From NCBI GenBank assembly GCA_963815655.1, contig CAWFHK010000001.1, positions 3,930,664 to 3,994,663 of the forward strand: a stretch of 64,000 nt of DNA. Reading direction: 5' to 3'. A program made the translations under genes and the position numbers. The notes below the pieces were generated by a model that did not search any database, had not been told where the DNA came from, and worked only from the letters and a program-made list of their open reading frames with translations. The stretch is from an uncultured Acidobacteriota bacterium (lineage in GTDB: Bacteria > Acidobacteriota > Thermoanaerobaculia > UBA5066 > Gp7-AA6). Below, in pieces: positions 6,081 through 49,548 of this stretch. Each line of letters begins with the position of its first letter. Positions within the stretch are counted from its first letter, which is position 1.

Positions 6081-6110
6081 TTTTCTCAATCGCAAATCAC
6101 CAATCACAGA

Positions 6111-17316: not shown

Positions 17317-17317
17317 C

Positions 17318-27925: not shown

Positions 27926-27975
27926 TCGCCCGGGACTCGGGACTCGAGACTCGGGACTCGGAATTCGGGATTCGA
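27926..27975. repeat. GGGACTCG octamer tandem array (~5 copies) just upstream of the efflux operon start
   Basis: CCCGGGACTCGGGACTCGAGACTCGGGACTCGGAATTCGGGATTCG. The same octamer array recurs at 40.25-40.37 kb. Confidence 0.8.
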
Positions 27976-30496: not shown

Positions 30497-30500
30497 ATTG

Positions 30501-31541: not shown

Positions 31542-31555
31542 CGTCCTCCGGGCGG

Positions 31556-32821: not shown

Positions 32822-32886
32822 GTGACGCTGCTCGTCGGCGAAGACTCTCCGGGAGCGCGGGCCGGGGCCTCCCTCCCGATGTTTGC

Positions 32887-33759
32887 TCAGGGTCGGGCCT
32901 CGACCGGACCGGCCTCCCTCTGCAGGCAGGCCGCGAGGCGCACGGCGATGCGCTCGGACGCGATCCGGCGGTAGAGGGCGAAGCTCGGCCAGGCGTTGAT
33001 GTCGATGACCACGAGGCGGCCGTCGGCGGCCGCGATGGCGTCTCCGCCGTAGACCTCGAGGCCGAGCGAGCCGGCGGCGCGGGCGGCGGTCGCCGCGAGA
33101 GCGTCCGTGTCGAAGGGATGCCGCGACAGTTCCTGGTCCCGATGGTAGAACCACTGGAACCAGGCCTCGCCCTCCGGCTCCGGGGGCGCGACGCCGTAGA
33201 ACTTGATCAGGTCTCCGGGCACGTGCTCCTGGATGACCGCCGTCTCGATGCCGCGCTCCGCCATTCGCGCGAGCACGGCGGCCGCCGGCTCCGAGCCCGC
33301 GGCGAACGACACGTCGTCCTCCCGCGTCCTGTGATGGTCGCCGCGCTTGACCCAGACCGGCGCCGCGCGCGAAGGGAGCGCGTCCGCCGGCAGGGGCTCG
33401 CCCGTCGCCACGAGGACGCTGCGGGGGAACGGGATTCCGTCTCTCGCGAGGAGCGCGATCATCCGGTGGCGGCGGGTGTTGAGGATCGCCGACACGCGGT
33501 TGACGATGCGCGCGCCGTTCTGCTCCCACCGCCCGAGCAACTCGAGGATCGGGGGAAGCTCGCACATGACGAAGGCCAGGGAAGGCGCCTGCGCCGACGC
33601 GGCCGCCTCGTCCGGCGTCAGGAGGGTCACGGGCTGTCCCAGCGATTCCAGGCGCCGGGCCGTCGCGCGGAGGATCTCGGCGTCGTCCACCTCCCGGCCG
33701 GGGGAATGCATGAGCTCGCGGTAGATCCCCCAGCAGGACCGCCCCGCCGGCGCGTTCAT
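32887..33759 (-). CDS. ATP-grasp family ligase
   Basis: ATP-grasp C-terminal motifs (...VIQEHVPGDLIKFYGV..., ...VVIDINAWPSF...). The ATG overlaps the upstream stop (ATGA). Confidence 0.6.
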   Translation of the reverse strand: MNAPAGRSCWGIYRELMHSPGREVDDAEILRATARRLESLGQPVTLLTPDEAAASAQAPSLAFVMCELPPILELLGRWEQNGARIVNRVSAILNTRRHRMIALLARDGIPFPRSVLVATGEPLPADALPSRAAPVWVKRGDHHRTREDDVSFAAGSEPAAAVLARMAERGIETAVIQEHVPGDLIKFYGVAPPEPEGEAWFQWFYHRDQELSRHPFDTDALAATAARAAGSLGLEVYGGDAIAAADGRLVVIDINAWPSFALYRRIASERIAVRLAACLQREAGPVEARP

Positions 33760-34484
33760 GGTTTCCCTGCCGTCACGGGCGCGCCGGGCTCGCGGGCCGC
33801 GAGCTCCTCGGCGAGGGCCAGGTCCTCGGGGCGGTCCACGTCCACGACGGCGGGGATGGAGAAGGCGAGGAGGGTCTCTCCGCTCCGCGCGAGCCAGGAG
33901 AGGAACTCCCGCAGCCGTCCGATGTTCTCGGGAGGGCGGAGCTTCCGGACCCGCTCGGGGAAGGCGTACATTCCTGCCGTCACGACGTCTCCTTTCTCTC
34001 CTCCAAGAGCCGTGATCCGCCCCGCCGGGTCGACGGACGCGCGCAGCGGCTTTTCGTCCGCGACGAACGGAGTCACCGCGAGCATCGCCGCCTCCGGCGC
34101 CTCCGCGGCCGCTCGCGCGAAGCGCAGGAAGTCTTCCCGCGGGCACCAGGCGTCCACCGTCGAGAAGAGCGCCGGACCCGGCGGCAGGCGCGCCGCGACC
34201 CGCCGGAAGCTCTCGTAGGAGGAGGCCGTCGTCTTCAGGATGACCTCCGTCTCGAGGGAAGGGAACCGGCCGCGGATCCAGTCGGCGCAGTCCTGCTCGC
34301 TCTCGTTGAAGATGACCGTGACGCGGTCGACGCCGGCCGCCGCGAAGTTGGCGAGGACGTGCGCGACGAGCGGGACGCCGGCGACCCGCACGAGGGGCTT
34401 GGCGGCCCCCCCTCCTCCCGCGCGCAGCCGGCTGCCCTCGCCGGCCGCGAGGAGGCCGCCGACGCGGATCGGCCCGGGCGTCAC
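33756..34484 (-). CDS. nucleotidyltransferase (NTP_transferase fold; sugar/alcohol-phosphate cytidylyl- or guanylyl-transferase-like)
   Basis: N-terminal GGLLAAGEGSRL...KPL signature. GTG start overlapping the upstream stop (GTGA). Confidence 0.65.
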   Translation of the reverse strand: MTPGPIRVGGLLAAGEGSRLRAGGGGAAKPLVRVAGVPLVAHVLANFAAAGVDRVTVIFNESEQDCADWIRGRFPSLETEVILKTTASSYESFRRVAARLPPGPALFSTVDAWCPREDFLRFARAAAEAPEAAMLAVTPFVADEKPLRASVDPAGRITALGGEKGDVVTAGMYAFPERVRKLRPPENIGRLREFLSWLARSGETLLAFSIPAVVDVDRPEDLALAEELAAREPGAPVTAGKP

Positions 34485-35218
34485 GGCAGGATCTCCTCGA
34501 TCTCCGCGAGCCGCCGGATCATCGGATCGCCCGGACAGCACGGCCGGGCGCCTCCGTCGGCCTCGCGGGCGGCGAGCCAGACATGCCGCATGCCGGCCTC
34601 GCGGGCGCCCGCCATATCGCGCGGGGCGGAGTCGCCCACGAAGACCGTCTCGCCGGCATGCGCTCGAAGCGGCGTCAGGGCGGCCTCGAAGATGCGGCGG
34701 TCGGGCTTCGTGTATCCGACCACGGCCGAATCGACGGCGACGGAGAGCGACGGCGCGAGACCGGTCTCGGCGCAGACCGCGGCGAGATTTCCGTAGAAGT
34801 TGGAGACGATCCCGATGCGGTACCGGCGGGCGAGCCGCTCGAGCAGCCGCGCGCTTTCGGCGAGCCGCTCGCTCGCCTGCGCGTGGAACCGCGCCGCCAG
34901 CCTCGCTGCGACGGATTCGTCCGCGAGGCCGAGCGTTCCGGCGAGCCCGGCGGCCAGCCTCTCGACGGTCTCGCGCAGCCCGAGCGTCGCGGGAAGCCTC
35001 CCGACGAGCGCGTCGTTGGCGGTGTAGAAGGCCGGGTCGAATCTCTCCCGCGGGACCTCGATCCCTTCCTCCCGGCAGTGGCGGAAGAAACGCTCCTTCC
35101 AGGGGATGCCCTCGGCGTCGAGCGTGCCCCCGAAGTCGAAGAGGAGGAAGAGGACCGGATCGTTGCGGACCGGGTCCGGCGCCGAGTGCCGGGGGCCGGG
35201 AGGCGCAAGCGGATTCAT
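34481..35218 (-). CDS. HAD-superfamily hydrolase (phosphatase)
   Basis: Motif I DFGGTLD (DxD), motif II SN, and the motif III/IV K...GD (TVFVGDSAPRD). Confidence 0.7.
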   Translation of the reverse strand: MNPLAPPGPRHSAPDPVRNDPVLFLLFDFGGTLDAEGIPWKERFFRHCREEGIEVPRERFDPAFYTANDALVGRLPATLGLRETVERLAAGLAGTLGLADESVAARLAARFHAQASERLAESARLLERLARRYRIGIVSNFYGNLAAVCAETGLAPSLSVAVDSAVVGYTKPDRRIFEAALTPLRAHAGETVFVGDSAPRDMAGAREAGMRHVWLAAREADGGARPCCPGDPMIRRLAEIEEILP

Positions 35219-36228
35219 CGCAGCTCCTCGGCCCCGGTCGGCAGCTCGACGGCCGACGCCCGCTTCCCGCGGGCCGGGCGCGCGATCAGGTAGAGAGCCC
35301 CGGGCACGAGCCAGACGAACTCCCGGGCGCGCCGCGCGAGCGCGTACGCCGCGCCCTGCGCCGCCGCGAGCCCGAGCAGGACGAAGATCCCGACCCGGAC
35401 CCCTTCGGCGCTGCCGGCCCTCGCCGGGACCCAGAGGAACATGTTGTTGAGCGCCATGGCCATCGCTTCGACGGCGAACGCGGTCGGCCACCCGGCGCCG
35501 GGCGCCACGAGGCGCAGGATGAGATACGTCTCGACCAGTCCCCCGCACCAGCCGAGAAAGCTCAGGCCGACGGCCGCCCCGAACCGTCCGCGCCGCCTCG
35601 CGTAGAAGCCGCGGATGTCGGCATCCACGCGCTGAGCGGCTTCCTGGTACCGGCCGACCCGCGCGGCGAGGAACCTCCAGCGCGCGAGCCACCGCAGGAT
35701 CGGGGCGTAGGTCCCCCGGAAGAGCGACCACGTCAGCAGGACAAAGAGCGCGCCCAGCACGGCGACCCCGCCGAGGGCCCCCCAGCGCGCCCCCGCGGGC
35801 AGAGGAAAGCGGACCAGGCAGACCGTCACTCCGCCGACGATGAAGACCCACTGGGCCAGCATGTCGGCGTGCTTGTGGATCGTGAGCGAGGCGAGCGCGC
35901 GGCCCGGCGGCAGCGTCCCGGTGAGCAGCCGGGCCTTGAGCGGCTCGCCCGCGACGCCTCCGGGCGCGACGTAGTTGACCGTGTACCCCGCGAGGTAGAC
36001 GCCCATCAGGCGCGGCAGCGCGGAGAGAGGCAGGAGCGGATCGATCACGAGCCACCAGCCGAGCAGGAACGCGGCCTCCGCGAAGAAGTAGATCGCGACG
36101 AGCAGGACGAACCAGGCGCCGATCGCCTCCAGGTTCGAGGCGATCGCGGGCCAGCCGACCCGCCAGAAGAGCCAGGCGACGAGCGCCAGGCCCGCCAGCA
36201 GGAGCGCGCCCCGCGTGCTCCGGTTCAT
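35215..36228 (-). CDS. UPF0104 / lysyl-phosphatidylglycerol-synthase-TM-like 'flippase-like' membrane protein (HpnL-like)
   Basis: About 8 TM helices, all hydrophobic, and an Arg/Lys-rich N-terminus. This family is known as a hopanoid-cluster-associated membrane protein. Overlaps the HAD gene (ATGA). Confidence 0.6.
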   Translation of the reverse strand: MNRSTRGALLLAGLALVAWLFWRVGWPAIASNLEAIGAWFVLLVAIYFFAEAAFLLGWWLVIDPLLPLSALPRLMGVYLAGYTVNYVAPGGVAGEPLKARLLTGTLPPGRALASLTIHKHADMLAQWVFIVGGVTVCLVRFPLPAGARWGALGGVAVLGALFVLLTWSLFRGTYAPILRWLARWRFLAARVGRYQEAAQRVDADIRGFYARRRGRFGAAVGLSFLGWCGGLVETYLILRLVAPGAGWPTAFAVEAMAMALNNMFLWVPARAGSAEGVRVGIFVLLGLAAAQGAAYALARRAREFVWLVPGALYLIARPARGKRASAVELPTGAEELR

Positions 36229-36247: not shown

Positions 36248-37225
36248 TCACGCCGTCGGGAGAAGCGCCTTCAGTTCGACCGGGAGGGGAAAGTTCACGT
36301 CCTCCTGCACCGTTTCGAACTCCTCGACGGACTCGACGCCCAGACTTTCGCGCGCGTAGTCCACGACTTCGCGCACGAGGATCTCCGGCGCGGACGCGCT
36401 CGCGGTCAGGCCGAGGACCCGGACGCCCGAGAGCCATTCCGGCCGGATGTCCATCGCCCGCTCGATCAGGTACGACGGGACGTTGTGCGCGCGGCCGACC
36501 TCGCAGAGGCGAAGGGAGTTGGAGCTGTTGGGCGCGCCGAGCACCAGGAGGGCGTCCACGTGCGGCGCCATCGCGCGCACCGCGTCCTGCCGGTTCTGGG
36601 TGGCGTAGCAGATGTCCCCCTTGGGCGGGCTGACCATGTCGGGGAAGCGGCGCTTCAGGACCTCGACGATCTCGCGCGTGTCGTCGAGCGAGAGTGTCGT
36701 CTGGGTCAGGTACGCCACCCTGCCGGGATCGGGGACCTCCACCGTCTCGGCCTCTTCCCGGTTCCCGACCAGGCGGATCGCCCCGGGCGCCTCTCCGAGC
36801 GTGCCGATCGTCTCGTCGTGGTCGTGATGCCCGATCAGGAGAATCGTGTAGTTCTTCTTCGCGTAGTGGATCGCCTCGAGGTGGACCTTCGTGACGAGCG
36901 GGCAGGTCGCGTCAATTGTCTTCAGCTGCTTGCGGCGGGCGTCGGCCCGCACCGTCGGCGAGATGCCGTGGGCCGAATAGATGAGCCACGACCCGTCGGG
37001 GACCTCGTTGACCTCCTCGACGAAGACAGCCCCCTTCTCCCGCAGCTCGTCCACGACGTAGCGGTTGTGGATGATCTCCTTTCGCACGTAGACCGGGCCG
37101 TCGCAGACCTGCAGCGCCCGGTCCACGACGTCGATCGCGCGCACGACGCCGGCGCAGAAGCCGCGCAGCCCCGCCACGAGGAGCTTCTCGACGCGCGCCG
37201 CGCCGGGATCCGTCGCTACGACCAT
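36248..37225 (-). CDS. ispH: 4-hydroxy-3-methylbut-2-enyl diphosphate reductase
   Basis: Conserved IspH/LytB blocks (GFCAGV, ...ATCPLVTKVH..., ...HNVPSYLIE...). Confidence 0.9.
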   Translation of the reverse strand: MVVATDPGAARVEKLLVAGLRGFCAGVVRAIDVVDRALQVCDGPVYVRKEIIHNRYVVDELREKGAVFVEEVNEVPDGSWLIYSAHGISPTVRADARRKQLKTIDATCPLVTKVHLEAIHYAKKNYTILLIGHHDHDETIGTLGEAPGAIRLVGNREEAETVEVPDPGRVAYLTQTTLSLDDTREIVEVLKRRFPDMVSPPKGDICYATQNRQDAVRAMAPHVDALLVLGAPNSSNSLRLCEVGRAHNVPSYLIERAMDIRPEWLSGVRVLGLTASASAPEILVREVVDYARESLGVESVEEFETVQEDVNFPLPVELKALLPTA

Positions 37226-39165
37226 GTCACCGTCTCCACGGCCTTCTCCTCGTCACGCGGCGAGGCGGTCTTCTCTCCGGGCGCCGCGGCGCGCGCGAGC
37301 TCCGGGTAGAGCGTCAGGACCGTCTCCACGACGCCCGCCGCGTCGAGCTTCAGGTTCGCGCGCTGGAGCGCCTGCGGACTGTGCTCCACGAACTGGTCCG
37401 GGATCGCGTGGATCTTCAGCTTCCCGGCCGGAAGGCCGGCCGCGTGGAAGGCCTCGAGGACGCCGCTTCCGAAGCCGCCCGTCGCCAGGTGTTCCTCGAG
37501 CGTCAGGACGCGCGGCGCCATGAGCGCGATCCGGGAGAGAAGGTCCCCGTCCAGCGGCTTGGCGAACCGCGCGTCGGCCACGCCGCAATCGATTCCTCGC
37601 TCCTTCAGCGCGTCGGCGGCGGCGAGGGCCACCGCGACCATCGAGCCGTAGGCGAGCAGGCAGAGGTCCTTCCCTTCGCGGAGGATCTCGCCGCGGCCGA
37701 TCGGGATCTTCTTCAGCTCCGGGTCGAGCTCGACGCCCACGCCGAGCCCGCGCGGGTAACGGATCGTGAAGGGCCCGCCCGATTCGATCGCGGTGAAGAG
37801 CAGGTGCTGCAGCTCGTTCTCGTCCCTGGGCGCCGCGACGACCATGTTCGGAAGGGAGCGGGTGTAGGTGATGTCGAAGATCCCGTGGTGGGTCTTCCCG
37901 TCGTCGCCGACGAGGCCAGCCCGGTCCGCGCAGATCGTCACCGGGAGGTTCTGCAGGCAGACGTCGTGGATCAGCTGGTCGAACGCGCGCTGCAGGAACG
38001 TGGAGTAGATCGCGACGACCGGCTTCCAGCCCGCCTTGGCCATGCCGGCCGCCATGATGACGGCGTGCTCCTCGGCGATGCCGACGTCGTAGACCCGTCC
38101 GGGGAAGCGCTTCTGGACCTCGATCAGGGCCGTCCCTTCGAGCATCGCGGCGCTGATCGCGACGATCTTCTCGTCTTTCTCCATGAGCCGCGAGAGCGTC
38201 TTCGCGAAGACCTGCGAGTAGGTGTAGCGCGCGCCCGGCCCGACGCTCGCCGACGGCGTGCCCGGCTGATGGAACTTGGAAGGGTTGTCCTCGGCGAGCT
38301 TGTAGCCCCGCCCCTTGTGGGTCAGGACGTGAACGACGACCGGCGTGCCTTCCCGCGAGATGTCCTTGACGCTCTTCAAGGACTCGGCGAGCTCCTCGAG
38401 GTTGTGGCCGTCGACCGGGCCGATGTACTGGAGGCCCATCTCCTCCCAGATCAGGTTGGGGAAGAAGAGCCCCTCCACCGAAGTCTTGACCTTGCGGGCG
38501 ATCTTCCACGCCTCTTCCCCGAGCGGCAGCCTGGAGAGGAGCTTCTGGCCCGCTTCCGTCAGCTTCTGGTACTTGGGGTGGAGCATGAACCGGTTGCGCC
38601 AGTGCGCGAGCCAGCCGATGTTCTCGGAGATCGACCAGCCGTTGTCGTTGAAGATGACGACGAGCCTCTTCGGCTTCAGGTGGACGATGTTGTTCAGGGC
38701 CTCGTAGCTCGGCCCCGAGGTCAGGGCGCCGTCCCCCACGACGGCGACGACGTAGGGCTCGCCCGGAGCGTTCTGAAGCGCGACCGCCATCCCGAGCGCG
38801 TAGGAGAGACCCGTCCCCGCGTGTCCGGCCGCGAGCATGTCGTGTGGGCTCTCCGCCGGCTCCGCGAAGCCGGACAGCCCGCCGGGCGTGCGGATCGTCG
38901 CAAACCGGTCCCTCCGGCCCGTGACGAGCTTGTGGGTGTAGCACTGGTTCGACGTGTCCCAGACGATCCGGTCCCTGGGGCTGTCGAAGGCGCGGTGGAG
39001 GGCCAGGGTCAGCTCCACGACGCCGAGATTGGAGGCCAGGTGCCCGCCGGTCCGGGTGATCGTCTCCACGATCATGCCGCGGCATTCCTCCGCCACCTCG
39101 CCCAGCTCCTTGATGCTCAAGGCCTTCAGGTCCTGAGGGCCCTCGATCCCTTTCAGTCGCGACAT
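37216..39165 (-). CDS. dxs: 1-deoxy-D-xylulose-5-phosphate synthase
   Basis: TPP-binding GDG(A)LT...NDN motif, the transketolase-like pyrimidine domain and the C-terminal domain. 649 aa. Confidence 0.9.
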   Translation of the reverse strand: MSRLKGIEGPQDLKALSIKELGEVAEECRGMIVETITRTGGHLASNLGVVELTLALHRAFDSPRDRIVWDTSNQCYTHKLVTGRRDRFATIRTPGGLSGFAEPAESPHDMLAAGHAGTGLSYALGMAVALQNAPGEPYVVAVVGDGALTSGPSYEALNNIVHLKPKRLVVIFNDNGWSISENIGWLAHWRNRFMLHPKYQKLTEAGQKLLSRLPLGEEAWKIARKVKTSVEGLFFPNLIWEEMGLQYIGPVDGHNLEELAESLKSVKDISREGTPVVVHVLTHKGRGYKLAEDNPSKFHQPGTPSASVGPGARYTYSQVFAKTLSRLMEKDEKIVAISAAMLEGTALIEVQKRFPGRVYDVGIAEEHAVIMAAGMAKAGWKPVVAIYSTFLQRAFDQLIHDVCLQNLPVTICADRAGLVGDDGKTHHGIFDITYTRSLPNMVVAAPRDENELQHLLFTAIESGGPFTIRYPRGLGVGVELDPELKKIPIGRGEILREGKDLCLLAYGSMVAVALAAADALKERGIDCGVADARFAKPLDGDLLSRIALMAPRVLTLEEHLATGGFGSGVLEAFHAAGLPAGKLKIHAIPDQFVEHSPQALQRANLKLDAAGVVETVLTLYPELARAAAPGEKTASPRDEEKAVETVTWS

Positions 39166-39383
39166 GGATCTCCTTGCCGTTGCCCGTCCTGGCGCGGGGC
39201 GCGTTCGACGTCCGTACCGTGTCCCGCTCTCGAGCCGATGTGCCTCAAGTTATCGCGCTCCCCTGAATATACCAGCTTGATAGCATTCGGGTTTCAGCCC
39301 GCGAGGAGTCTTGCAATTCCATGGCCGGAGAGGCGATAGTCCCCGGCGCGGGGGAATCGGCGGAGAGGAGGTCCCACAGGGAC

Positions 39384-40295
39384 ATGGAAGCCTTGCGGAT
39401 CGGATCGGACGAACACGCCCGTCTCTTCTGCGGGACGTTCCTGGAGACTCACCGCCCCTTCCGGGCCCGGGACATCGTCTGGCCCGAGCTGGACGAGGAG
39501 AACCTGGCCAGGTTGAAGGGCCTCCCCGTCTGGGACGAGGCGGCGAGGACGGAAGCCGCCACCGCAGTCAAGGTGCAGACCCTCGGGGAAGCCGAGACCG
39601 ACCCGCTCCTGAAGGAAGCCATCGCCCTGCAGGGCTACGAGGAGGGGCGCCACGCGGAGATCATCTCCCTCCTGACGAAGACCTACGGGATCGCCACCGC
39701 TCCCTTCGGAGAGCCGGAGAGGCCGAAGAACCCGACGTGGACCTTCCTGCGCACCGGCTACGGCGAGTGCCTCGATTCCTTCTTCGCCTTCGGCCTCTTC
39801 GACATCGGGCGCAGGAGCGAGTTCTTCCACGCGGACCTGATCGCGCTCTTCGACCAGATCATGCAGGAGGAGGCGAGGCACATCCTCTTCATCGTGAACT
39901 GGGCGGCGTACCTGCGCGCCCGCAGGCCCCTTCCGCTCAAGCCGGTGTTCGACGCGCGGCGGGCCTGGAACATCGCCGCGCAGGCCTTCGACCGCGTGAG
40001 CGGCGCGATGCGAATGGCCGGCGGCGGAAACGGCGGCGGCGGAGAAAACGGTGAAGAGAAGGCGAAGGGGACGCAGAGGGGGTTCACGCTGAAGAGCCAC
40101 TCGGCCTTCGGCGATTTCAAGCTGCGCTCGTTCCTGGAGCTCTGCCTGGCCGAGAACGTGCGGCGCCTCTCGCCCTACGACCCGCGCCTGTTGAGACCCA
40201 CGCTGGTACCGGGGACCGTGCGGCTCCTGGTGAAGCTGCTCCCCCGGGCGAAGCCGGGACGCGGGACTCGGGACGCGAGACTCGAACCGAAGTGA
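39384..40295 (+). CDS. ferritin-like di-iron carboxylate protein
   Basis: ATG with GGAGAGGAGG RBS. Two ExxH motifs (EEGRH, EEARH) in helical context. Gly-rich C-terminal tail. Confidence 0.55.
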   Translation: MEALRIGSDEHARLFCGTFLETHRPFRARDIVWPELDEENLARLKGLPVWDEAARTEAATAVKVQTLGEAETDPLLKEAIALQGYEEGRHAEIISLLTKTYGIATAPFGEPERPKNPTWTFLRTGYGECLDSFFAFGLFDIGRRSEFFHADLIALFDQIMQEEARHILFIVNWAAYLRARRPLPLKPVFDARRAWNIAAQAFDRVSGAMRMAGGGNGGGGENGEEKAKGTQRGFTLKSHSAFGDFKLRSFLELCLAENVRRLSPYDPRLLRPTLVPGTVRLLVKLLPRAKPGRGTRDARLEPK

Positions 40296-40365
40296 TGGTC
40301 CTTCGCTCCAAGAACCCAACCAGGTTTCCCCCTCCGAACCCCGAGTCCCGAGTCCCGAGTCCCGA
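40250..40365. repeat. inverted GGGACTCG / CGAGTCCC octamer arrays spanning the ferritin-like stop and abutting the next start codon
   Basis: CGGGACGCGGGACTCGGGACGCGAGACTCG (40250-40280) and CCGAGTCCCGAGTCCCGAGTCCCGAC (40340-40365) are reverse complements of each other. The second ends 3 nt before the ATG at 40369. Confidence 0.75.
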
Positions 40366-40368
40366 CTG

Positions 40369-41541
40369 ATGGGAAGCGACCTCGTCAGCGCCTGCGTCTT
40401 CTGCGCGGGGATCCTGCTCGGCATGGAGCTGACGCCGCCGCCCGGATACCACGCGGAGGTCGGGTTCTCCTACGCGACGGCGGCGCGCCGGTACGTCATC
40501 GGCCCGGGAAGCGACGACACGTCCGACGTCACGCCCAAGTTCGCGCTCGTGGGGCTGGGCTGGTCGCGGGACGCCGCCGCCGGGCTCGGGGCCGGCACGC
40601 CCGCAGCGGAGTGGAGGGTGCGCGTCGCCCTCGCGCCTTCGCACGACGAGCAGGAGCAGACGCCGTTCGCGGCGACCAACACGACGGCCACCGGCACCGG
40701 CCGTTACGAGAACTTCGCGCTCCTCGCGCGCTACCCGCTCTCGCCGCGCGACTCGCTCGAGGCCGCGTGGAACCGCCGGACGCACAAGGCGACCGACGAG
40801 CTGGACATCGCCCACGAGCGCTTCTTCCTCTCGGAACAGCGCGTCCTCTCGGCCGAGCGCGTGGACGTCGCGGTCGGCTGGAGGCGCCGATGGAAAGGAA
40901 TCGAGGCAGCCCTGTCGGCGCGGTACGCGCGCCCGAGCGGGAGCCAGACGACGTCGGCCACGGACCGGATCTCGGAGGGCCCGATCTACGGAGGAGCGCT
41001 CGAGGCGCGCGCCCGCCGGGGACGGTGGACGCTCTCGGTCCTGGCCGAGCGGGCGAGCGGATCGATCGGCGTGCACGAGCAGAGCCAGCCGGATTTCGCG
41101 CACCGCGATTTCGACGGCACCGCCACCCTCGAGGCGTACCGGATCGGAGCGGGTTACGCGTCGGGCAGCACCGAAGCGTTCCTCCAGGCCACCTACGACC
41201 GCTCGCGCCTCCCCTTCGTGGCGTTCGCGGTCCTGGGCACCGAGGTCTCGGCCCTGGAGGCGGGCTACCACCCCGAGTCCCGCGCGAACCTGGTCTTCTG
41301 GGACCTCACCGTCCGGCACGCGTTCGTGCCGGGGTTCCGGGTGAAGGTCCTCCTGCGCTCTTCGAGCGGCGACGAGACGCTGACGCTGACCGACCCGGCC
41401 GGGGTCCTGCCGGCGCGCCGCCTCGACATCCGCCGCTCCGGAGTCTTCGGCGCCGGCCTCTCCCGCGTCCTCGGCGGCCCGGAGGTGAGCCTGGGCGTCG
41501 GCGCCGAGATCGCCCTCCCTTTCGCAGACCGGGGGCCGTAA
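40369..41541 (+). CDS. hypothetical secreted / outer-membrane-like protein
   Basis: Signal peptide (ACVFCAGILLGMELT). Alternating beta-strand-like pattern with aromatic C-terminal region (IALPFADRGP). Confidence 0.5.
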   Translation: MGSDLVSACVFCAGILLGMELTPPPGYHAEVGFSYATAARRYVIGPGSDDTSDVTPKFALVGLGWSRDAAAGLGAGTPAAEWRVRVALAPSHDEQEQTPFAATNTTATGTGRYENFALLARYPLSPRDSLEAAWNRRTHKATDELDIAHERFFLSEQRVLSAERVDVAVGWRRRWKGIEAALSARYARPSGSQTTSATDRISEGPIYGGALEARARRGRWTLSVLAERASGSIGVHEQSQPDFAHRDFDGTATLEAYRIGAGYASGSTEAFLQATYDRSRLPFVAFAVLGTEVSALEAGYHPESRANLVFWDLTVRHAFVPGFRVKVLLRSSSGDETLTLTDPAGVLPARRLDIRRSGVFGAGLSRVLGGPEVSLGVGAEIALPFADRGP

Positions 41542-41648
41542 GACGTGAGACGTAAGAACGTGAGGCGTGGCGCGGGAAGGGCATTTGGAGCTTCGTTTTG
41601 CGTTTCACGCTTAACGTCTTACGGCTCTGGTGTTAACTTGGTCCAAAG

Positions 41649-43250
41649 ATGAAGTCGCGCCGGCGGATCCTCTGCGTCTTCCCGCGCTACGCGCGGTCGT
41701 TCGGGACGCTGCACCACGCCTACCCGCTCATGCCGCGGGTGCGCGCCTTCATGCCGCCGCAGGGGCTCCTCCTGATCGCGGCGTCGCTGCCGTCGACTTG
41801 GGAGGTCCGGTTCGTGGACGAGAACATGTCGCCGGCGGGACCGGAGGACTTCGCCTGGGCGGACGCGGTCTTCGTGACCGGGATGCACGTGCAGCGCGAC
41901 TGCATCAACGACGTCAACGAGCGGGCGCACGTCGCGGGCAAGGTCACGGCGCTCGGAGGGCCCTCGGTCTCCGCCTCCCCCGAGTGGTATCCGAATTTCG
42001 ACATCCTCCACGTCGGGGAGATGGGCGACGCGACGCGGGCGCTCTATGCCCATCTGGACGAGACCGTCGAGCGGCCGCGAGAACAGCTCCGTTTCACGAC
42101 GGCGGACCGGACGCCGCTGACGGACTTTCCCACCCCCGCCTACCACCTGATCGACATCAAGCACTACTTCCTGGCGAGCGTGCAGTTCTCGAGCGGCTGC
42201 CCCTACCGCTGCGAGTTCTGCGACATCCCGGAGCTTTACGGCCGGAACCCGAGGCTGAAGACGCCCGAGCAGGTCTGCCGCGAGCTCGACGCGATCGTGG
42301 CGGCCGGGCCGCCCGGCGCGATCTACTTCGTGGACGACAACTTCATCGGCAACCAGAAGGCCGCGCTCGACCTGCTGCCGCACCTGGTCGCCTGGCAGCG
42401 CCGCACCGGCTACCGCGTGCGCTTCGCCTGCGAGGCGACGCTGAACATCGCGCAGAACCGAAAGGTCCTGGAGCTCATGAAGGAGGCGTTCTTTCACACC
42501 GTCTTCATCGGCATCGAGACGCCCGACCCGGAGGCGCTGCACGGCATGGTCAAGGACCAGAACCTGCGCCTGCCGATCCTCGAAGCGGTCGCGATCCTGA
42601 ACTCCTACGGCATGGAGGTCGTCTCCGGGATCATCATGGGGCTCGACCAGGACACAGAGCGGACGGCGGACGACATCCTGGCCTTCATCGAGGCGTCGAA
42701 GATCCCGATGCTCACGATCAACCTTCTCTACGCGCTTCCCAGGACGCCGCTCTGGCGCCGCCTGGAGAAGGAGGGGCGCATCCTCTCCGACGGGACCGGC
42801 GGCGAGGAATCGAACGTCCAGTTCCTTCTCCCGCGCGAAGTCGTGCGCGGCAACTGGTTGAAGTGCGTGACGGAATCCTACGAGCCGGAACCCCTTTACC
42901 GGCGCTACCAGCACCAGATCGAGCACACCTACCCGAACCGCTTCGACCCCGGGGCCCTGCGGAGAGTCGAGCGGAGCGACATCGCCAATGGCTTCCGGAT
43001 CCTCGGCCGGATCCTCTGGCGCGTGGGCCTCCGCTCCGACTACCGGAAGGTCTTCTGGCGCATGGCCCGCCCGGCCTTGAAGCGCGGCGATATCGAATCG
43101 GTCATCCATGTCGGCCTGGTGGGCCACCACCTGATCCGGTTCGCCCGTGACTGCGAGGCCGGCGTCGGCGAGTATTCCTTCTACTCCGAGAAGGGCGCCG
43201 CCCGCCCCGGCGCGGCGGCCTCCGCCCGCCCCGCCCGCGCGACCGGCTGA
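41649..43250 (+). CDS. B12-binding radical SAM protein with DUF4070-type C-terminus (candidate hopanoid C-methylase, HpnP/HpnR-like)
   Basis: N-terminal cobalamin-binding region. Radical SAM CxxxCxxC (CPYRCEFC). 533 aa. Divergent from, and adjacent to, the hopanoid cluster. Confidence 0.75.
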   Translation: MKSRRRILCVFPRYARSFGTLHHAYPLMPRVRAFMPPQGLLLIAASLPSTWEVRFVDENMSPAGPEDFAWADAVFVTGMHVQRDCINDVNERAHVAGKVTALGGPSVSASPEWYPNFDILHVGEMGDATRALYAHLDETVERPREQLRFTTADRTPLTDFPTPAYHLIDIKHYFLASVQFSSGCPYRCEFCDIPELYGRNPRLKTPEQVCRELDAIVAAGPPGAIYFVDDNFIGNQKAALDLLPHLVAWQRRTGYRVRFACEATLNIAQNRKVLELMKEAFFHTVFIGIETPDPEALHGMVKDQNLRLPILEAVAILNSYGMEVVSGIIMGLDQDTERTADDILAFIEASKIPMLTINLLYALPRTPLWRRLEKEGRILSDGTGGEESNVQFLLPREVVRGNWLKCVTESYEPEPLYRRYQHQIEHTYPNRFDPGALRRVERSDIANGFRILGRILWRVGLRSDYRKVFWRMARPALKRGDIESVIHVGLVGHHLIRFARDCEAGVGEYSFYSEKGAARPGAAASARPARATG

Positions 43251-43298
43251 GTCTTCCCGGAACGCGGCAGGGCGAGAAACGGGTTACCGGAGGCTAGA

Positions 43299-43604
43299 TC
43301 AGCTCCACTTCTTGCCGAGCGCTTCGAGCCCCGCGCTCTTCAGATCCTCCGGGCTCATGACCGGGTGAAACTCGACGTCGGCGTCGAACTGGAGGAACCA
43401 GGGCTCGGCGATCGCCGGGATCCCCGAGACGTCCTTCAGGTTGACGATCAGGATCGCGGTTCGCCGGCCGTGCATCTCGGTGAAGTAAGCCGACTCGGGC
43501 TTCGTATCTTCCAGGATGCGGTTCATCGTCTGGCCGACCGTCCCCTTGCGGACGGCCTCGTTGAACTTTTCGTGAGGGATCGAGACTTTGAGGAGAATTC
43601 GCAT
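43299..43604 (-). CDS. small conserved hypothetical protein (101 aa)
   Basis: Compact ORF with protein-like composition immediately downstream of the squalene-synthase-like gene. Confidence 0.45.
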   Translation of the reverse strand: MRILLKVSIPHEKFNEAVRKGTVGQTMNRILEDTKPESAYFTEMHGRRTAILIVNLKDVSGIPAIAEPWFLQFDADVEFHPVMSPEDLKSAGLEALGKKWS

Positions 43605-43704
43605 TTCCGCTCCTTATCTTGCTGGAACTCCGATCCTACTCGTTCTCGCCCGGAATGGCAGCTCCCGGGGAAGCGGACGCCGAAGGAAGGCCGGAACCGG
43701 GTGG

Positions 43705-44610
43705 TCAGGGCCGGATCGCGACCGCCGGATCGCCGCGGTCGAGCGCCCGGTCGAGACGCCGGCGGATGGCGAAGAGCTCGAGGCGCGAGACCTTGGAGCC
43801 GGGGCCGCGCTCCTCGACCTTCCGGAGCGTCGCCCAGGCGAGCTCGACGGGGAGGGCGCAGAACTCGACGAGACCGCGCGGGGCGGCGGCGCGCTGCAGG
43901 GCGAGCGTGTACTCGCCGGCGACATGGAGGTCCCGGCGGGCCTTGGCGAAGACGTCCGCGCGGGGGACGCTCCCGGGCAGGAAGCCGCGCCCCTCCGATG
44001 CGTCCACCGAGGCGTCCTTGAGGATGTTGACGAGCTGCAGGGCCTCGCCGAAGGTCGCCGCGCGCGCGCGCAGGTAGGGCGCGACCGGAGCCAGGATGTC
44101 CCGCTTCAGGAGGAACAGATCCGAGAGCATCTCGCCCACGATCCCGGCGACGGCGTAGCAATAGGCGCGCAGCTCTTCGAGGTCTTTCAACGCGAGGACC
44201 CCGGCGTCGGACCGGGCCACGAAGCCGGCCATTCCCGCGGCCGAGCGGGAGACGTGGCCGCGGACGGAGGCGATCGCTTCAGGGTCGAGCGCGAAGAAAG
44301 CCTCGAGAACGAACGGAGTCTCGGCGATCAGCTCGCGGTAGCCGGCGTGGGGCGAGACGCCGGCCCCGGTCCATTTCCCGGCGAGCCGGCGCGCCTCCCC
44401 GAAAGAGAAGTCGCGCAGCAGGTCCTGGAACTCCGCGAGGGCCTCGATCCGCCGCTCGGGCGGCCAGTGGGCGGCGTCCTCGAAGGTGTCGGCGATGCGG
44501 AAGAGAAGGTAGGCGATCATGACCTGCCGCCTCGTCGGCTCGGGGAGCACCGGGATCGAGATCGCGAAGGTGCGGCTCGTCTTCTCCAGCAGCTCTTCGA
44601 GCGTCGTCAT
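43705..44610 (-). CDS. squalene/phytoene synthase family protein (HpnC/HpnD/Sqs-like)
   Basis: Trans-isoprenyl diphosphate synthase head-to-head fold. Asp-rich motif region (YCYAVAGIVGEM) and N-terminal LEKTSRTFAISI. Confidence 0.8.
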   Translation of the reverse strand: MTTLEELLEKTSRTFAISIPVLPEPTRRQVMIAYLLFRIADTFEDAAHWPPERRIEALAEFQDLLRDFSFGEARRLAGKWTGAGVSPHAGYRELIAETPFVLEAFFALDPEAIASVRGHVSRSAAGMAGFVARSDAGVLALKDLEELRAYCYAVAGIVGEMLSDLFLLKRDILAPVAPYLRARAATFGEALQLVNILKDASVDASEGRGFLPGSVPRADVFAKARRDLHVAGEYTLALQRAAAPRGLVEFCALPVELAWATLRKVEERGPGSKVSRLELFAIRRRLDRALDRGDPAVAIRP

Positions 44611-45350
44611 TCGAATCCGTCCTCGAGGAGGCGCCCGAGAAAGAGCGCGAGGCCCTCGCTGCAGTCGAGCACCCGGCGGCGCATCCGGAGGAGGGCGGGG
44701 ATCGTGCGGGGGCGCCGGAGGGCCCTCGCGGCCACCGCGCCCCGGCGGATCCCGCCGTCCTCCCCGACGCTCGCGGCGATCGACTCGGGCAGGGACTCCT
44801 CGGCCCGGTCGCTGATGGAGCGGACGACGAGGTAGGGGATCGAGGCCCGCGCCGCGACCCGCGCCCAGGCCGAGGATTCCATGTCGGCGGCCGCCGGGCC
44901 GCCGGAATCGGCCAGCGCCGCGAGAACCTCCTTCTCCCGCGCCGTGACGGCCGGCCGCTCGACCGTCAGGAGCGTGCCGGCGCGCGCGCCCGCCGCGAGC
45001 GCGCGGGCGAGCAGGCCCTCATCGGGAGCCGCGGCTTCCCTGGAGGAGTCGCGGACATGGCGGGAGGCGAGCAGGTCTCCGATTTCGAGCTCCGCCGAAA
45101 GCGCGGCGGCCACGCCCGCCCCGAGGAGCGCCGCGGGGCGGAGGGCCCCGCAGAGCCGGGCCGACTCGCGCTCGGCATTCCTCGGGCCGGTTCCGGTCGC
45201 CGCGATGGCGACCCGCGCCGCTCCGATCCGCGCGGTGACGTACCCCGCGCCGTCGAAGCGAGCGTCCTCCGCGTGGCGGACGATGGCGTCGAGCTCCTCC
45301 TTCATGGCCGTCACGATGACGATCCTGCGGCCGTTCCTATCCGCGGACAT
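44607..45350 (-). CDS. hpnG: hopanoid-associated phosphorylase/nucleosidase (PNP_UDP_1 fold, HpnG-like)
   Basis: MTA/SAH-nucleosidase-like fold (IVIVTAMKEEL...). Sits between the squalene-synthase-like gene and hpnA. Start at the internal ATG 45350; an alternative start is at 45374. Confidence 0.65.
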   Translation of the reverse strand: MSADRNGRRIVIVTAMKEELDAIVRHAEDARFDGAGYVTARIGAARVAIAATGTGPRNAERESARLCGALRPAALLGAGVAAALSAELEIGDLLASRHVRDSSREAAAPDEGLLARALAAGARAGTLLTVERPAVTAREKEVLAALADSGGPAAADMESSAWARVAARASIPYLVVRSISDRAEESLPESIAASVGEDGGIRRGAVAARALRRPRTIPALLRMRRRVLDCSEGLALFLGRLLEDGFE

Positions 45351-46323
45351 AGCCGTTTTCGCGGAACCAGGCAACCGCGCGGGCGAGGGCCTCCTCGACC
45401 GGCGTCTGCGGTAGCCCCAGCTCCCGCACCGCCTTGCCCGGGTCGAAATACATCCGGTGGCGGGACATCCGAGCGCCCTCGAGCGGCACCCGGGGCGGCT
45501 GCCCGGTCACTCTCGAGGCGAGCGTGCTCACCGCGGCGGCGGCAAGCGGGACCCAGTGCGGCAGGCGGACTCTCGGCGAGGGGATGCCCGTCAGCTTCGA
45601 GAGCGCGTCGAAGATCTCCTTGAGAGTCATGTCGCGGTTTCCGAGGATGTATTTCTCTCCGATCCGTCCCTTCTCCGCGGCGAGGACGTGCCCCTCCGCG
45701 ACGTCCCGCACGTCCACGAGATTCAATCCCGTCTCAACGTAGGCTGGCATCCGGCGGTTCAGGAAGTCCACGATCATCTGCCCGGTGGGCGTCGGCTTGA
45801 TGTCCCTCTCGCCGACCGGCGTCGAGGGATTGACGATGACGACCGGAAGGCCCCTGGCCGCGAACTCCTTCGCGACGCCCTCGGCCTCGTGCTTGCTCTT
45901 CTTGTAATGGCCGATCAGGGTGCGGGGCTCGACCGGAGTCTCTTCGTTTCCGGGCCGGCCGTCGCGCGTCAGGCCCAGGGCGCCGACGCTGCTCGTGTAG
46001 ACGACCTTCTCGGCTCCGATTTCCGCTGCGGCCGCGAGGACGTTGCGGGTCCCCTCGACGTTGGCGGCATAGATCTCGCGGGGGCGCCGCGCCGAGAGCC
46101 GGTAATCCGCGGCGCAGTGATAGACTCGCTGCGCGCCGGCCATCGCCCGCACCAGCGACTCCGGGTCCGTCACGTCGCCCGCCACCACCTCGACCGGCAG
46201 CTCCTCGAGGTTGCTCAGCCGGCTGGAGGATCGGACGAGGCAGCGAACGGTCCGTCCGCGCTTGACGAGCGCCCGCACGACGTGCGCGCCCACGAACCCG
46301 GTGCCGCCGGTGACGAAGTCCAC
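45337..46323 (-). CDS. hpnA: hopanoid-associated NAD-dependent sugar epimerase/dehydratase (HpnA-like)
   Basis: N-terminal GGTGFVG Rossmann motif and YxxxK (YKKSK). 328 aa. Position in the hpn cluster. Confidence 0.75.
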   Translation of the reverse strand: MDFVTGGTGFVGAHVVRALVKRGRTVRCLVRSSSRLSNLEELPVEVVAGDVTDPESLVRAMAGAQRVYHCAADYRLSARRPREIYAANVEGTRNVLAAAAEIGAEKVVYTSSVGALGLTRDGRPGNEETPVEPRTLIGHYKKSKHEAEGVAKEFAARGLPVVIVNPSTPVGERDIKPTPTGQMIVDFLNRRMPAYVETGLNLVDVRDVAEGHVLAAEKGRIGEKYILGNRDMTLKEIFDALSKLTGIPSPRVRLPHWVPLAAAAVSTLASRVTGQPPRVPLEGARMSRHRMYFDPGKAVRELGLPQTPVEEALARAVAWFRENGYVRG

Positions 46324-46544: not shown

Positions 46545-47546
46545 CTACCCGGTGAGGTTCCAGGCGAGGAGGCGAAACATGTCGCCGGGGTGCTTCGGGA
46601 GCTCCTTGACGACGGAAGCCTCGAACCCGGAGTGCATCGCGCAGTTGGCGCAGAGGGGGTCCTCGCGCGACTCCCAGTAGTCCCAGTCGGTGCCGCCCCA
46701 GAACTCGTCCCACGAGTGCGTGTACGTTTTTCCGATCAGGTAGCAAGGGCCCTTCCAGCCGTTGGGCGTGAAGGTGACGGTGCTCCAGGGGGAGCACTTG
46801 TACTCGCGCAGCCCCGCCGCGAACTCGAGGAACATCGGCGTCGAGGTCAACTTGTACTTCTTGGAGATCTCCAGCACCCGCCGGAACTTCTTCTGGATCT
46901 CCGATTTCGTCAGGAACATGTCGCGCTCGACCGACTCGTAGTGATAGCCGGGCGAGACGAGGAGCCCCTCGACCCCCAGGCCCGTCAGGAGCTCGCAGAC
47001 CTGCTCGACCTCCGAGACGTCGGTTTCCTTGAAGATCGTCATGTTGGCCATGACGTGATGGCGCAAGCGAACGCCCTCGCGGATCATCTCGACGGCCGTG
47101 TCGAAGACGCCGTCGCGGGCGCAGACCTTGTCGTGGGTTTCCCGCATGCCGTCCAGGTGGACGTTGATCATCAGGCGGCGGTCGGGAGGGATGACGCCGT
47201 ACACCTTCTGGTCGAGGAGAAGCCCGTTGGTGCAGAGGTAGATGTGGCGCTTCCTGCGGATGATCTCGGAGACGAGCGCGGGCAGTTCCGGGTAGATCGT
47301 CGGCTCGCCGCCGCAGATCGAGACGATCGGAGCCTTCGAGGTCTCGACCGCCTCGAGGCACTTCTCGATCGGGAGGCGGTCCTGGAGCTTCCCCGTGTGC
47401 CGCTCGATCGCGCACCCCAGGCAGGCGAGGTTGCAGGTGTAGAGGGGCTCGAGCATCAGGACGAACGGGTAGCGCTTGTTGCCCGCGAGGGCGTTGACGA
47501 TCTGGTGCCGGACCGTGCCGGTCGTGATGTGCAGCGGGAACCTCAT
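46545..47546 (-). CDS. hpnH: adenosylhopane-forming radical SAM enzyme
   Basis: Radical SAM CxxxCxxC (CNLACLGC). Strong HpnH-like conserved blocks. The ATG overlaps the shc stop (ATGA). Confidence 0.85.
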   Translation of the reverse strand: MRFPLHITTGTVRHQIVNALAGNKRYPFVLMLEPLYTCNLACLGCAIERHTGKLQDRLPIEKCLEAVETSKAPIVSICGGEPTIYPELPALVSEIIRRKRHIYLCTNGLLLDQKVYGVIPPDRRLMINVHLDGMRETHDKVCARDGVFDTAVEMIREGVRLRHHVMANMTIFKETDVSEVEQVCELLTGLGVEGLLVSPGYHYESVERDMFLTKSEIQKKFRRVLEISKKYKLTSTPMFLEFAAGLREYKCSPWSTVTFTPNGWKGPCYLIGKTYTHSWDEFWGGTDWDYWESREDPLCANCAMHSGFEASVVKELPKHPGDMFRLLAWNLTG

Positions 47547-49548
47547 CGGCTCGATTCTCCTTCGCTCGTCCTCGTGTCGGCCGTGGCTTCCAGGGCCTTC
47601 CGATCGGCGGCCTCGAGTCCGGGGCCGGAAGACCCGGCCTCCCGTCCATAGACCGCGAGGGCCCAGAGCGGGAAGTACGTCGCGTAGAGATGGTAGCGCA
47701 GGTAGAAGACCCGCGGGAACCCCGTCCCGGTCCAGTATTCGTCCTTCCAGGAGCCGTCGTACTGCTGGTTTCCCAGCAGGTAGTCGAGGCCGCGGCGAAC
47801 GCTGTTGGAAGTCCAGTCGCCCAACGCGAAGAGTCCAAGCAACGCCCATGCCGTCTGGGAGGGGGTGCTCGGCCCGGTGCCTTTGCGCCCCGGCTCGTCG
47901 TAGGAGCGCGGGAGCTCTCCCCATCCGCCGTCCTCGTTCTGGTGGCGGCGCAGCCAGCTCCCCCCCGCTGATACCGTTCCTGGGAGAGGTCCTCGCCGGC
48001 GCTCGCGAGTCCCCTCAGGGCGAGCCACGTCCCGTAGATGAAGTTGCACCCCCACCGCCCATACCAGGTTCCTTCGGTGTCCTGCCTGCGGTTCAGATAC
48101 GCGACGGCGCGCCGGACCGCCTTGACGCCGCGCCCGACGCCGATCCGGTCGAGCGCCTCGAGCGTGCGCCCGGTGATGTCCTCGCAGCTCGGGTCGATCA
48201 TGGCGTTGTGGTCCGCGAACGGGATGAACGTCAGCACCTCGTTGTCGCAGTCGCGGTCGAAGGCGGGCCAGCCGCCGTCGCCGTTCTGCATCGCGAGCTG
48301 CCAGGTCACGCCGCGCTCGATCGCCCCCTGCCGGCGCCGCTCGTCGCGCTCGTCGGGAAAACGCACGGCGGCCAGAGACGTCAGCACTTCCGCCGTGTCG
48401 TCGGTATCGGGATAGAACTCGTTCTCGTACTCGAAGTACCAGCCGCCGGGGGGCGTCTTCGGGATCCGCCGCTGCCAGTCCCCGGGCACGCGGACTTCGC
48501 GGTCGAGCAGCCAGCCCGCCGCGCGCAGCAGGCACGGATCGTCTTCCGGGACGCCCGCCTCCCGCAGCGCGACCACCGCGAGCGCCGTGTCCCAGACCGG
48601 GGGGAAGCAGGGCTGCAGGCGAATCGTCTCTTCCTCCTCGATCTCCAGCTTCTGCAGCTCTTCGACCTGGCTCTTCACCGTCGGGTGATCGGCCGCGTAG
48701 CCGCGGCAGCGCAGCGCGAGGATCGTGTTGACGATCGGAGGGAAGATCGCTCCGAGCCCGTCGCTCCTCTCGAGACGCTCGAGGACCCACGCCTCGGCCC
48801 GTGCCAGCGCCCGCCTGCGCAGGGGAGTCCAGCGCCGGGACTCCAGCTCGTGGAGGAACCGGTCCACCCCGCCGAAGAAGGCTCCCCAGAACCGCGCGCG
48901 CAGGCTCCGCGCCCGCCGCTTCGGCTGCGCCGCGCCCTCCGGCGTCCGGAGCTCGGTGAGAGACGCGCTCTCCGGGACGGGACAGCTCGGGCGATATGCC
49001 GAGATGATCGAGAGGGGCACCACGATCGCGCGGGACCAGGAGGACATCCGATAGATCGAGAACGGCATCCAGTCCGGCAGCAGGACGAGCTCCGCCGGGA
49101 CGGTCGGGCATCTCTCCCAATCGTATTGTCCGAAGATCGAGAGATAAATCTTCGTGAAGGAGTTGCACGCGTCCAGCCCGCCATGCTCGCGGATGACGCG
49201 CCGCGCCTTCGCCATGTGCGGGGCTTCGGGGTCGTCGCCGACGAGCTTCAAGGCGAAGTAGGCCTTCGTCGAGGCGCTCACCTCCGCCGGGCCTCCCGGG
49301 TAGACCGCCCAGCCCCCCGACGGGAGCTGCTGGCGCCGCAGGTACTCGGCCGCCTTCCGGATCCGGTCCTCCCCGGTGCGCCCGAGGAAATGCATCGTCA
49401 GCATGTACTCGGACTCGAGGATCGTGTCCCCCTCGAGCTCGCCGCACCAGTGGCCGTCCTCGCGCTGGATGGAGAGGAGGTACCGGCGGGCCGCCGCCGC
49501 GGCGTCGTCCACCCCGAGTGCGGGTTCCACGTCTTTCTCGACCGACAT
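47543..49548 (-). CDS. shc: squalene-hopene cyclase, reading frame interrupted at a G7/C7 homopolymer (47960-47966)
   Basis: The N-terminal ~530 aa (frame A) carry the QW motifs and DxDDTA (DTDDTAEV). The C-terminal ~140 aa (GGWGE...TGTGFPRVFYLRYHLY...) lie in a second frame. One extra G in the run would restore ...SQERYQRGGSWLRRHQNEDGGWGE.... Confidence 0.8.

Follow-up and report, generated by a model that had tools for sequence, protein, structure and literature searches.

Hopanoids are a major class of membrane lipid in bacteria, and in fossil form they count among the most widely used molecular biomarkers. The question raised here is what three neighboring genes might contribute to hopanoid chemistry in a 64,000-nucleotide stretch of DNA from an uncultured Acidobacteriota bacterium (contig CAWFHK010000001.1, positions 3,930,664 to 3,994,663; hereafter the window). 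The genes are consecutive plus-strand open reading frames (ORFs) between dxs and a set of hopanoid (hpn) genes, and they encode a ferritin-like protein of 303 amino acids (aa), which we call X, a protein of 390 aa and a B12-dependent radical SAM protein of 533 aa. An initial annotation had recognized this arm, and the ORF calls and coordinates agreed with its description, including two ExxH motifs in the ferritin-like product. In this study, we found that the radical SAM gene, hpnP, adds a member to a known family and occupies an unusual syntenic position, and that X belongs to an unnamed family of predicted di-iron oxidases that is tied to hopanoid clusters across phyla. The G+C content is about 70% across the window, and the nearest homologues of its proteins come from metagenome-assembled genomes of Thermoanaerobaculia (Acidobacteriota).

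The radical SAM protein as an HpnP orthologue

The initial annotation had proposed the 533-aa protein as a hopanoid methylase, and domains, identities, tree position and model scores all supported this, specifically for HpnP and not for HpnR. The protein carries B12-binding, Radical_SAM and DUF4070 domains, an architecture that defines HpnP and HpnP-like proteins in Hoshino et al. (2023; PMC10697835), from whose alignments our HpnP comparison sequences were taken. PF04055 and PF13282 exceeded their cut-offs, and the B12-binding domain PF02310 was matched at E = 3.6e-07 with 30.5 bits, slightly under the gathering score of 32.1. The cluster motif CxxxCxxC is present as GCPYRCEFC and is conserved with Nostoc punctiforme HpnP. 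Identity was 57.9% to the reference enzyme, HpnP of Rhodopseudomonas palustris TIE-1 (B3QHD1), 59-61% to HpnP of Koribacter and Granulicella, and 60-63% to cyanobacterial HpnP (63% to ACC80996 of N. punctiforme), compared with 49-50% to the cyclase-less myxobacterial/alphaproteobacterial sister group and 32-37% to five HpnP-like sequences. In a neighbor-joining tree of a small taxon sample (seven HpnP-clade sequences, no bootstrap), the window protein nested within the HpnP clade. It did not fall in a non-hopanoid (for example, BchE-like) clade.

The nearest relatives outside the Acidobacteriota were cyanobacterial proteins with 62-65% identity over 96-99% of the length, one of them being ACC80996 of N. 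punctiforme PCC 73102, which is given as the HpnP of that organism in the supplementary table of Hoshino et al. (2023; PMC10697835). Close relatives bear the JGI name "hopanoid C-2 methylase," which probably derives from KO K22705, and a recent benchmark found this KO over-stringent rather than lax.

Other families were rejected on their model scores. The protein reached 53.8 bits with the HpnR model TIGR04367 (cut-off 650), 57.0 bits with the HpnJ model TIGR03471 (cut-off 577.6; the true HpnJ of related loci reached 803.7) and 45.7 bits with TIGR02026 for BchE-like anaerobic cyclases (cut-off 481), all far under the cut-offs, and the same was true of the PhpK and ladderane B12-dependent radical SAM models. 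On sequence grounds the protein is therefore an HpnP orthologue, and this orthology suggests that it would methylate hopanoids at C-2.

The squalene-hopene cyclase gene, shc, lies 4.3 kb from hpnP in the window. The layout dxs<>X-390aa-hpnP><101aa-sqs-hpnG-hpnA-hpnH-shc (<>, divergent; ><, convergent) recurs in related locus L001 and, with shc intact, in L089, whereas in L091 hpnP stands directly opposite dxs in a cluster that also contains hpnI/J/K/L, and in L090 it is located elsewhere in the genome. Like the 390-aa gene, hpnP is an accessory gene; it is found together with X in the window and in L001, L002 and L089. Hoshino et al. (2023) did not see synteny between the squalene cyclase (SC) and HpnP genes in any phylum (PMC10697835); the Thermoanaerobaculia lineage of the window is an exception and thus a counter-example to this published statement. 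The presence of hpnP in such a cluster also adds a soil acidobacterial source of potential 2-methylhopanoids.

In the window, shc is split into two frames at a G7 run (CAGCGGGGGGGAGC, 47955-47965, minus strand), with the N-terminal 550 aa and the C-terminal 130 aa aligning to intact SHC in different frames. The gene is intact in the syntenic locus L089 and in L003, and the split is probably a homopolymer error of the long-read assembly, although it could be a real pseudogene.

Protein X: fold and linkage to hopanoid genes

The start of X at 39384 agrees with an AGGAGG placed 12 nt before it and with the N-termini of its homologues. No Pfam or NCBIfam family was matched at E <= 0.01, the Ribonuc_red_sm, FA_desaturase_2, AurF, MiaE and aldehyde-deformylating oxygenase (ADO) models included, and the best phmmer match among PDB sequences had E = 0.47. 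The family is nevertheless large, with 771 clusters at 50% identity, matches in at least 561 species-level genomes and thousands of metagenomic proteins, whose members, if named at all, are called generically "ferritin-like domain-containing protein." An AlphaFold model built on a 38-sequence alignment (predicted local distance difference test, pLDDT, 87; predicted template modeling score, pTM, 0.85) had R2, R2lox, soluble methane monooxygenase (sMMO), ADO and desaturase as structural neighbors, with the N-oxygenases AurF and CmlI as distant structural relatives. Six canonical ligands, E57, E87-x-x-H90, E128 and E163-x-x-H166, fall by residue number on four predicted helices, and all six are invariant among homologues of 40% to 88% identity. 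From this model, X can be confidently predicted to be a di-iron helical bundle of the R2/R2lox type. The fold, together with the retention of all six ligands, points to O2 activation at a di-iron (or Mn/Fe) site, and X is most likely a soluble O2-activating oxidase of a hydrophobic substrate.

A genome collection was scanned with a nine-sequence X alignment, which retained the best 80 out of at least 561 loci; 84 loci with X homologues were taken in all, of which 83 were analyzed (L004 was left out). These loci were searched with the window hpn proteins and with neighbors that passed NCBIfam cut-offs, and the replicon context in Burkholderia and Cupriavidus was read by tblastn. An hpn-family gene lay within 10 kb of X in 53 of the 83 loci and a strictly hopanoid-specific gene in 40; where both flanks extended at least 8 kb, the counts were 37 and 28 of 47. 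The chance level is about 1%, a rough figure for a 20-kb neighborhood in a 4-Mb genome. Neighbors exceeded curated cut-offs for HpnI (439 bits), HpnJ (804), HpnK (337), HpnL (354) and HpnB (512). HpnL was the commonest neighbor (43/82 loci), and lone pairs of X and hpnL occurred in Stellaceae and other Alphaproteobacteria. The gene order differed among groups as follows.

Thermoanaerobaculia, lineage of the window: dxs-ispH<>X...sqs-hpnG-hpnA-hpnH-shc
Thermoanaerobaculia, second group: X-hpnJ-hpnK-hpnI-hpnL
Sphingomonas, Rhizomicrobium, Nevskia and Steroidobacteraceae: hpnI-hpnJ-hpnK-X-hpnL, the commonest order
Roseomonas: X adjoins hpnH, shc and ispH
Cupriavidus metallidurans CH34, chromid: X-hpnB-hpnA-ispH-hpnH

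The X family is thus tied to hopanoid clusters across phyla. The initial annotation had allowed that the ferritin-like protein might be a generic domain of unknown function (DUF) not linked to lipid genes in other genomes; this was not the case, as relatives of X lie within hopanoid clusters of Acidobacteriota and of Alpha-, Beta- and Gammaproteobacteria. In Sphingomonas quercus (L054), hpnK and X as well as X and hpnL overlap by 4 bp, and these overlaps point to translational coupling of X with both genes in Sphingomonas.

The linkage can also be read in another way, in which X is an oxidase of envelope lipids or isoprenoids in general, or else a ferritin/rubrerythrin-like iron or oxidative-stress protein, brought near hpn genes by shared regulation or by hitch-hiking with dxs and ispH. 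Close relatives without exception have X divergent from dxs-ispH, and this is so in L002 and L007 too, whose hpn genes are located elsewhere. About one-third of the X loci have no hpn neighbor (Elusimicrobiota, Binatia, Myxococcota, B. cenocepacia), and distant members adjoin genes for a CMAS-type lipid methyltransferase in Acidimicrobiales, for a PMT_2 glycosyltransferase or, in Gloeobacter, for a LolA-like protein. When another conserved partner was looked for in the loci without hpn genes, only HpnL recurred, and the Gloeobacter neighbors gave no HpnL match. Against this reading, the hopanoid-specific linkage recurs in four phylum- or class-level groups with differing gene orders, for which hitch-hiking is hard to invoke, and X is translationally coupled inside hpnK-X-hpnL. 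We consider a non-hopanoid X unlikely, and judge it somewhat more probable than not that X acts on hopanoids.

The reaction proposed for X

We infer from synteny and fold that X is probably a hopanoid tailoring enzyme, as the initial annotation had also suggested. A plausible model is that the three-gene arm is an accessory tailoring module of the Thermoanaerobaculia hopanoid locus, in which HpnP would methylate hopanoids at C-2 and X would oxidize an extended hopanoid (bacteriohopanepolyol, BHP), the most likely substrate given its genomic context. As a tentative proposal, suggested by fold, ligands and synteny and the one we favor among the reactions considered, X may be an O2-dependent hydroxylase of side-chain C-H bonds in BHPs, that is, a pentol/hexol synthase that would convert bacteriohopanetetrol (BHT) to bacteriohopanepentol (BHpentol) and bacteriohopanehexol (BHhexol) and give their cyclitol ethers (CE). 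A 2025 survey that covered 52 Alphaproteobacteria reports that no genes are known for making bacteriohopanepentols/hexols or for introducing the delta-6/delta-11 double bonds, and that an inspection of hpn neighborhoods yielded no candidates (PMC12583986). The chemistry of three cultured X carriers bears on the proposal.

Sphingomonas formosensis CC-Nfb-2 (X in L055): 69% BHT-CE, 22.6% BHpentol-CE and 1% unsaturated
Burkholderia cenocepacia (carries X): BHT-CE, BHpentol-CE and unsaturated forms of both (PMC8560942)
Roseomonas (Muricoccus) pecuniae DSM 25622 (X in L076, by hpnH/shc): only BHT, 0.1 mg/g

This pattern, with one negative case among three, mildly favors side-chain hydroxylation over desaturation. 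X could instead be a hopanoid ring desaturase (delta-6 and/or delta-11) that abstracts two hydrogens at the di-iron site in the manner of acyl-ACP (acyl carrier protein) desaturases; the gene for this step is equally without a candidate (PMC12583986), and B. cenocepacia, in which X is present, makes unsaturated BHT and BHpentol cyclitol ethers (PMC8560942). However, X is very common inside the hpn clusters of Sphingomonadales, which make almost no unsaturated hopanoids (0-1% of BHPs in the 52-strain survey, 1% in S. formosensis; PMC12583986), and it is this distribution that mildly favors hydroxylation. Furthermore, Afipia broomeae (Hyphomicrobiales) makes unsaturated BHPs, and no cultured Hyphomicrobiales were among the X matches listed. 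A desaturase is rather unlikely on this evidence.

The frequent pairing with HpnL might suggest a different target, namely that X, working together with HpnI/K/J and HpnL, oxidizes the glucosamine, cyclitol or related amino-cyclitol head group before HpnL-dependent flipping, and not the hopane skeleton or the side chain. The order hpnI-hpnJ-hpnK-X-hpnL, the rank of HpnL among neighbors and the lone X and hpnL pairs would all suit such a role, as would the unexplained later-eluting isomers and the methylated cyclitol ether of the 52-strain survey (PMC12583986) and the distant structural resemblance of X to AurF and CmlI. On the other hand, X is linked to hpnA/B/G/H and shc with no hpnI/J/K nearby in the window lineage, Cupriavidus and Roseomonas, and R. 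pecuniae has X but no cyclitol ether; we regard a head-group oxidase as improbable.

Several points weigh against the hydroxylase proposal itself. Besides the X loci without an hpn neighbor and the distant members in other lipid or envelope contexts, there is R. pecuniae DSM 25622, which gave BHT alone, at very low yield, although it has X. B. cenocepacia makes unsaturated hopanoids too, so its chemistry does not separate a hydroxylase from a desaturase. A partner reductase is not evident in the locus, and if the shc frameshift were real, the hopanoid pathway would be dead in this genome.

Two side observations concern possible partners or substitutes of X. HpnA of the window also reached 235 bits with the NCBIfam model of SdmB, a sterol C-4 demethylase component. 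SdmB is a 3-beta-HSD (hydroxysteroid dehydrogenase)/decarboxylase-like reductase that works with an oxygenase partner, and this likeness may hint at a role of HpnA beside an oxidase such as X. In L091, a related metagenomic cluster without X, Dioxygenase_C (intradiol-type) and glyoxalase-fold genes (9609-11608) adjoin hpnL, between hpnP and hpnL-hpnK-hpnJ-hpnI, and the Dioxygenase_C gene may be another oxygenase replacing X.

X is a candidate, open to direct testing, for one of the hopanoid modifications that lack an assigned gene, and its family sits in hpn neighborhoods of many cultured, genetically tractable bacteria (Sphingomonas, Cupriavidus), with Burkholderia also carrying X. Should X be a hydroxylase, it would represent a new di-iron enzyme family working on hopanoids and mostly paired with HpnL, and its gene would be a marker for pentol/hexol hopanoids and O2-dependent tailoring in environmental and sedimentary studies.

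Locus layout and comparison with known systems

The features of the locus, by window position, are as follows.

35215-36228, minus strand: HpnL-like flippase-like membrane protein (LPG_synthase_TM)
36248-37225, minus strand: ispH (LytB)
37216-39165, minus strand: dxs, the head-to-head (divergent) partner of the arm
39384-40295, plus strand: X, ferritin-like di-iron carboxylate protein (predicted), 303 aa; alternative start at 39321 (324 aa)
40252-40367, no strand: inverted heptamer-array hairpin, (CGGGACT)n...(AGTCCCG)n, by RNA folding
40369-41541, plus strand: 390-aa protein, no family match
41535-41625, no strand: second intergenic hairpin, of GTAAGAC/GTGAGAC heptamers, by RNA folding
41649-43250, plus strand: hpnP, orthologue of the B12-dependent radical SAM hopanoid C-2 methylase, 533 aa
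43299-43604, minus strand: conserved 101-aa ORF that matches DUF3303 weakly, at the end of the putative minus-strand hpn operon
43705-44610, minus strand: squalene/phytoene synthase family protein, best model squalene synthase
44607-45374, minus strand: hpnG-like nucleosidase/phosphorylase (TIGR03468, 108.7 bits, under cut-off)
45337-46323, minus strand: hpnA (TIGR03466, 478.7 bits, over cut-off)
46545-47546, minus strand: hpnH (radical SAM, DUF3463)
47543-49548, minus strand: shc, squalene-hopene cyclase, frameshifted in this assembly

The initial annotation had placed the radical SAM gene head-to-head with an hpnC/D-like gene. The orientation was misread, and model scores did not support the hpnC/D name. 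The arm is divergent from dxs and convergent (tail-to-tail) with the squalene-synthase family gene, from which hpnP is separated by the conserved 101-aa minus-strand ORF, also found in L001 and L089. The family gene itself (43705-44610), the sole squalene/phytoene-synthase gene of the cluster, scored best as a single squalene-synthase type (TIGR01559, 91 bits, above its HpnC or HpnD scores), its product missed all curated cut-offs, and hpnE was not seen nearby; together, these features suggest that squalene would be made by an Sqs-type route rather than the HpnCDE route. Scans of 39000-43750 found neither a sigma-70-like promoter nor an intrinsic terminator. Downstream of hpnP, L001 has an inserted PMT/PMT_2 (ArnT-like) glycosyltransferase (13894-15651), and L002 has an island (14084-20930) with an RHH/PIN toxin-antitoxin pair, a FokI-like protein, QueC and an N6-methylase in place of the hpn genes.

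On the other side of dxs, the HpnL-like protein reached 108.5 bits with the HpnL model TIGR03476 (cut-off 195.65) and is related to HpnL but under its cut-off. It belongs to a conserved minus-strand block at about 29400-36228, upstream of ispH, which was recognized through its correspondence with L001 and is also found in L003 and L091. The block encodes a CDP-alcohol phosphatidyltransferase, a Gfo/Idh/MocA oxidoreductase, a class-III aminotransferase, a 290-aa unknown protein, a nucleotidyltransferase, a HAD phosphatase and the HpnL-like protein, to which the version in relatives adds a myo-inositol-1-phosphate synthase. Standing beside hopanoid genes, it looks like an amino-cyclitol phosphate head-group pathway.

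Homologues of the 390-aa protein occur in nine Thermoanaerobaculia loci, always near X. The protein had no Pfam match even at E <= 5, no PDB profile match and no significant porin model, and a single-sequence AF2 (AlphaFold 2) model was unusable (pLDDT 30). Its strikingly conserved N-terminus, M..DLVSACVFCAG, is hydrophobic and has no basic n-region, and its hydrophobicity showed a slight excess of beta over alpha periodicity (248 of 381 windows); the signal peptide and barrel-like periodicity read by the initial annotation gained no clear support from this. The protein is lineage-specific, seen only in Thermoanaerobaculia relatives, and is probably exported and beta-rich; speculatively, it may handle hopanoids in the envelope. 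In L026 its gene is broken, similar to the split of shc in the window.

Both X and the 390-aa gene had been described as framed by GGGACTCG arrays. The array of GGGACTC heptamers between the two genes is real, whereas different heptamers stand between the 390-aa gene and hpnP, and no comparable array was found upstream of X. Across the window, GGGACTCG occurs 15 times against 10.3 expected, which is not significant overall. The inverted array (GGGACTC)n/(GAGTCCC)n at 40252-40367 is the sole intergenic hairpin of such heptamers in the arm; its 5' arm falls within the final codons of X, its 3' arm stops 2 nt short of the gene that follows, and it folds at -58.1 kcal/mol (z = -3.45), compared with -54.2 kcal/mol (z = -5.73) for the hairpin at 41535-41625. 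Neither has a U-tract, and an RNA-level or structural role is more likely for them than intrinsic termination.

Arrays of 7-nt units, tandem or inverted and forming long hairpins, lie at 2917-2943, 6088-6119, 17321-17470, 27931-27974, 40252-40367, 41535-41625 and 63347-63486, and those of intergenic regions often end right before a start codon. In the spacer between X and the 390-aa gene, the heptamer varies among relatives (L002, L005, L012, L014, L017) as GGGACTC, GGAAGGC, CAACTCT, CTACCGA or AACGCTT; the array architecture is conserved at the orthologous spacer and the sequence is not. To our knowledge, no element like these arrays has been described. Two other tandem repeats are present in the window, one at 9213-9377 with 5.5 copies of a 27-nt unit (GCTCGGGATGACAGGAGGGGGCGAGGG), and one at 21500-21955 with about 33 copies of a degenerate 12-nt unit (ACGAACACGCCG) and a super-period of 102 nt, which probably encodes a repetitive protein segment.

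Compared with known systems, X had no prior name in the hopanoid literature searched, and no di-iron member was found in the hopanoid gene nomenclature searched (hpnA to hpnT, hpnX). X differs from R2lox and the class I ribonucleotide reductase R2 in an identity of only 10-13%, in matching no Pfam R2 model and in its own conserved motifs (W33-P34, GECxDSFFAFG, NW after the second ExxH and a C-terminal DPRLLRP), and its genomic context is hopanoid biosynthesis, whereas that of R2 is nucleotide reduction. It likewise matches no family model of acyl-ACP desaturases, ADO or MiaE, and has no ACP or tRNA context. Like the unassigned hopanoid-locus families HpnL, HpnM, HpnS and HpnT (Belin lab; 10.1101/2025.07.29.667474), X is linked to hopanoids by microsynteny only, and it mostly adjoins hpnL. 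Those four families, however, are membrane or periplasmic, transport-like and were found via domain annotations (10.1101/2025.07.29.667474), whereas X is a predicted cytoplasmic redox enzyme that has no domain annotation and is absent from their list. HpnP of the window resembles the known HpnP proteins (B3QHD1, ACC80996) in its three domains, its CxxxCxxC motif, its 58-63% identity over the full length, its clade and the presence of shc in the genome. In contrast to the HpnP data of Hoshino et al. (2023), its gene lies inside a hopanoid locus, 4.3 kb from shc, on a Thermoanaerobaculia branch outside that data set.

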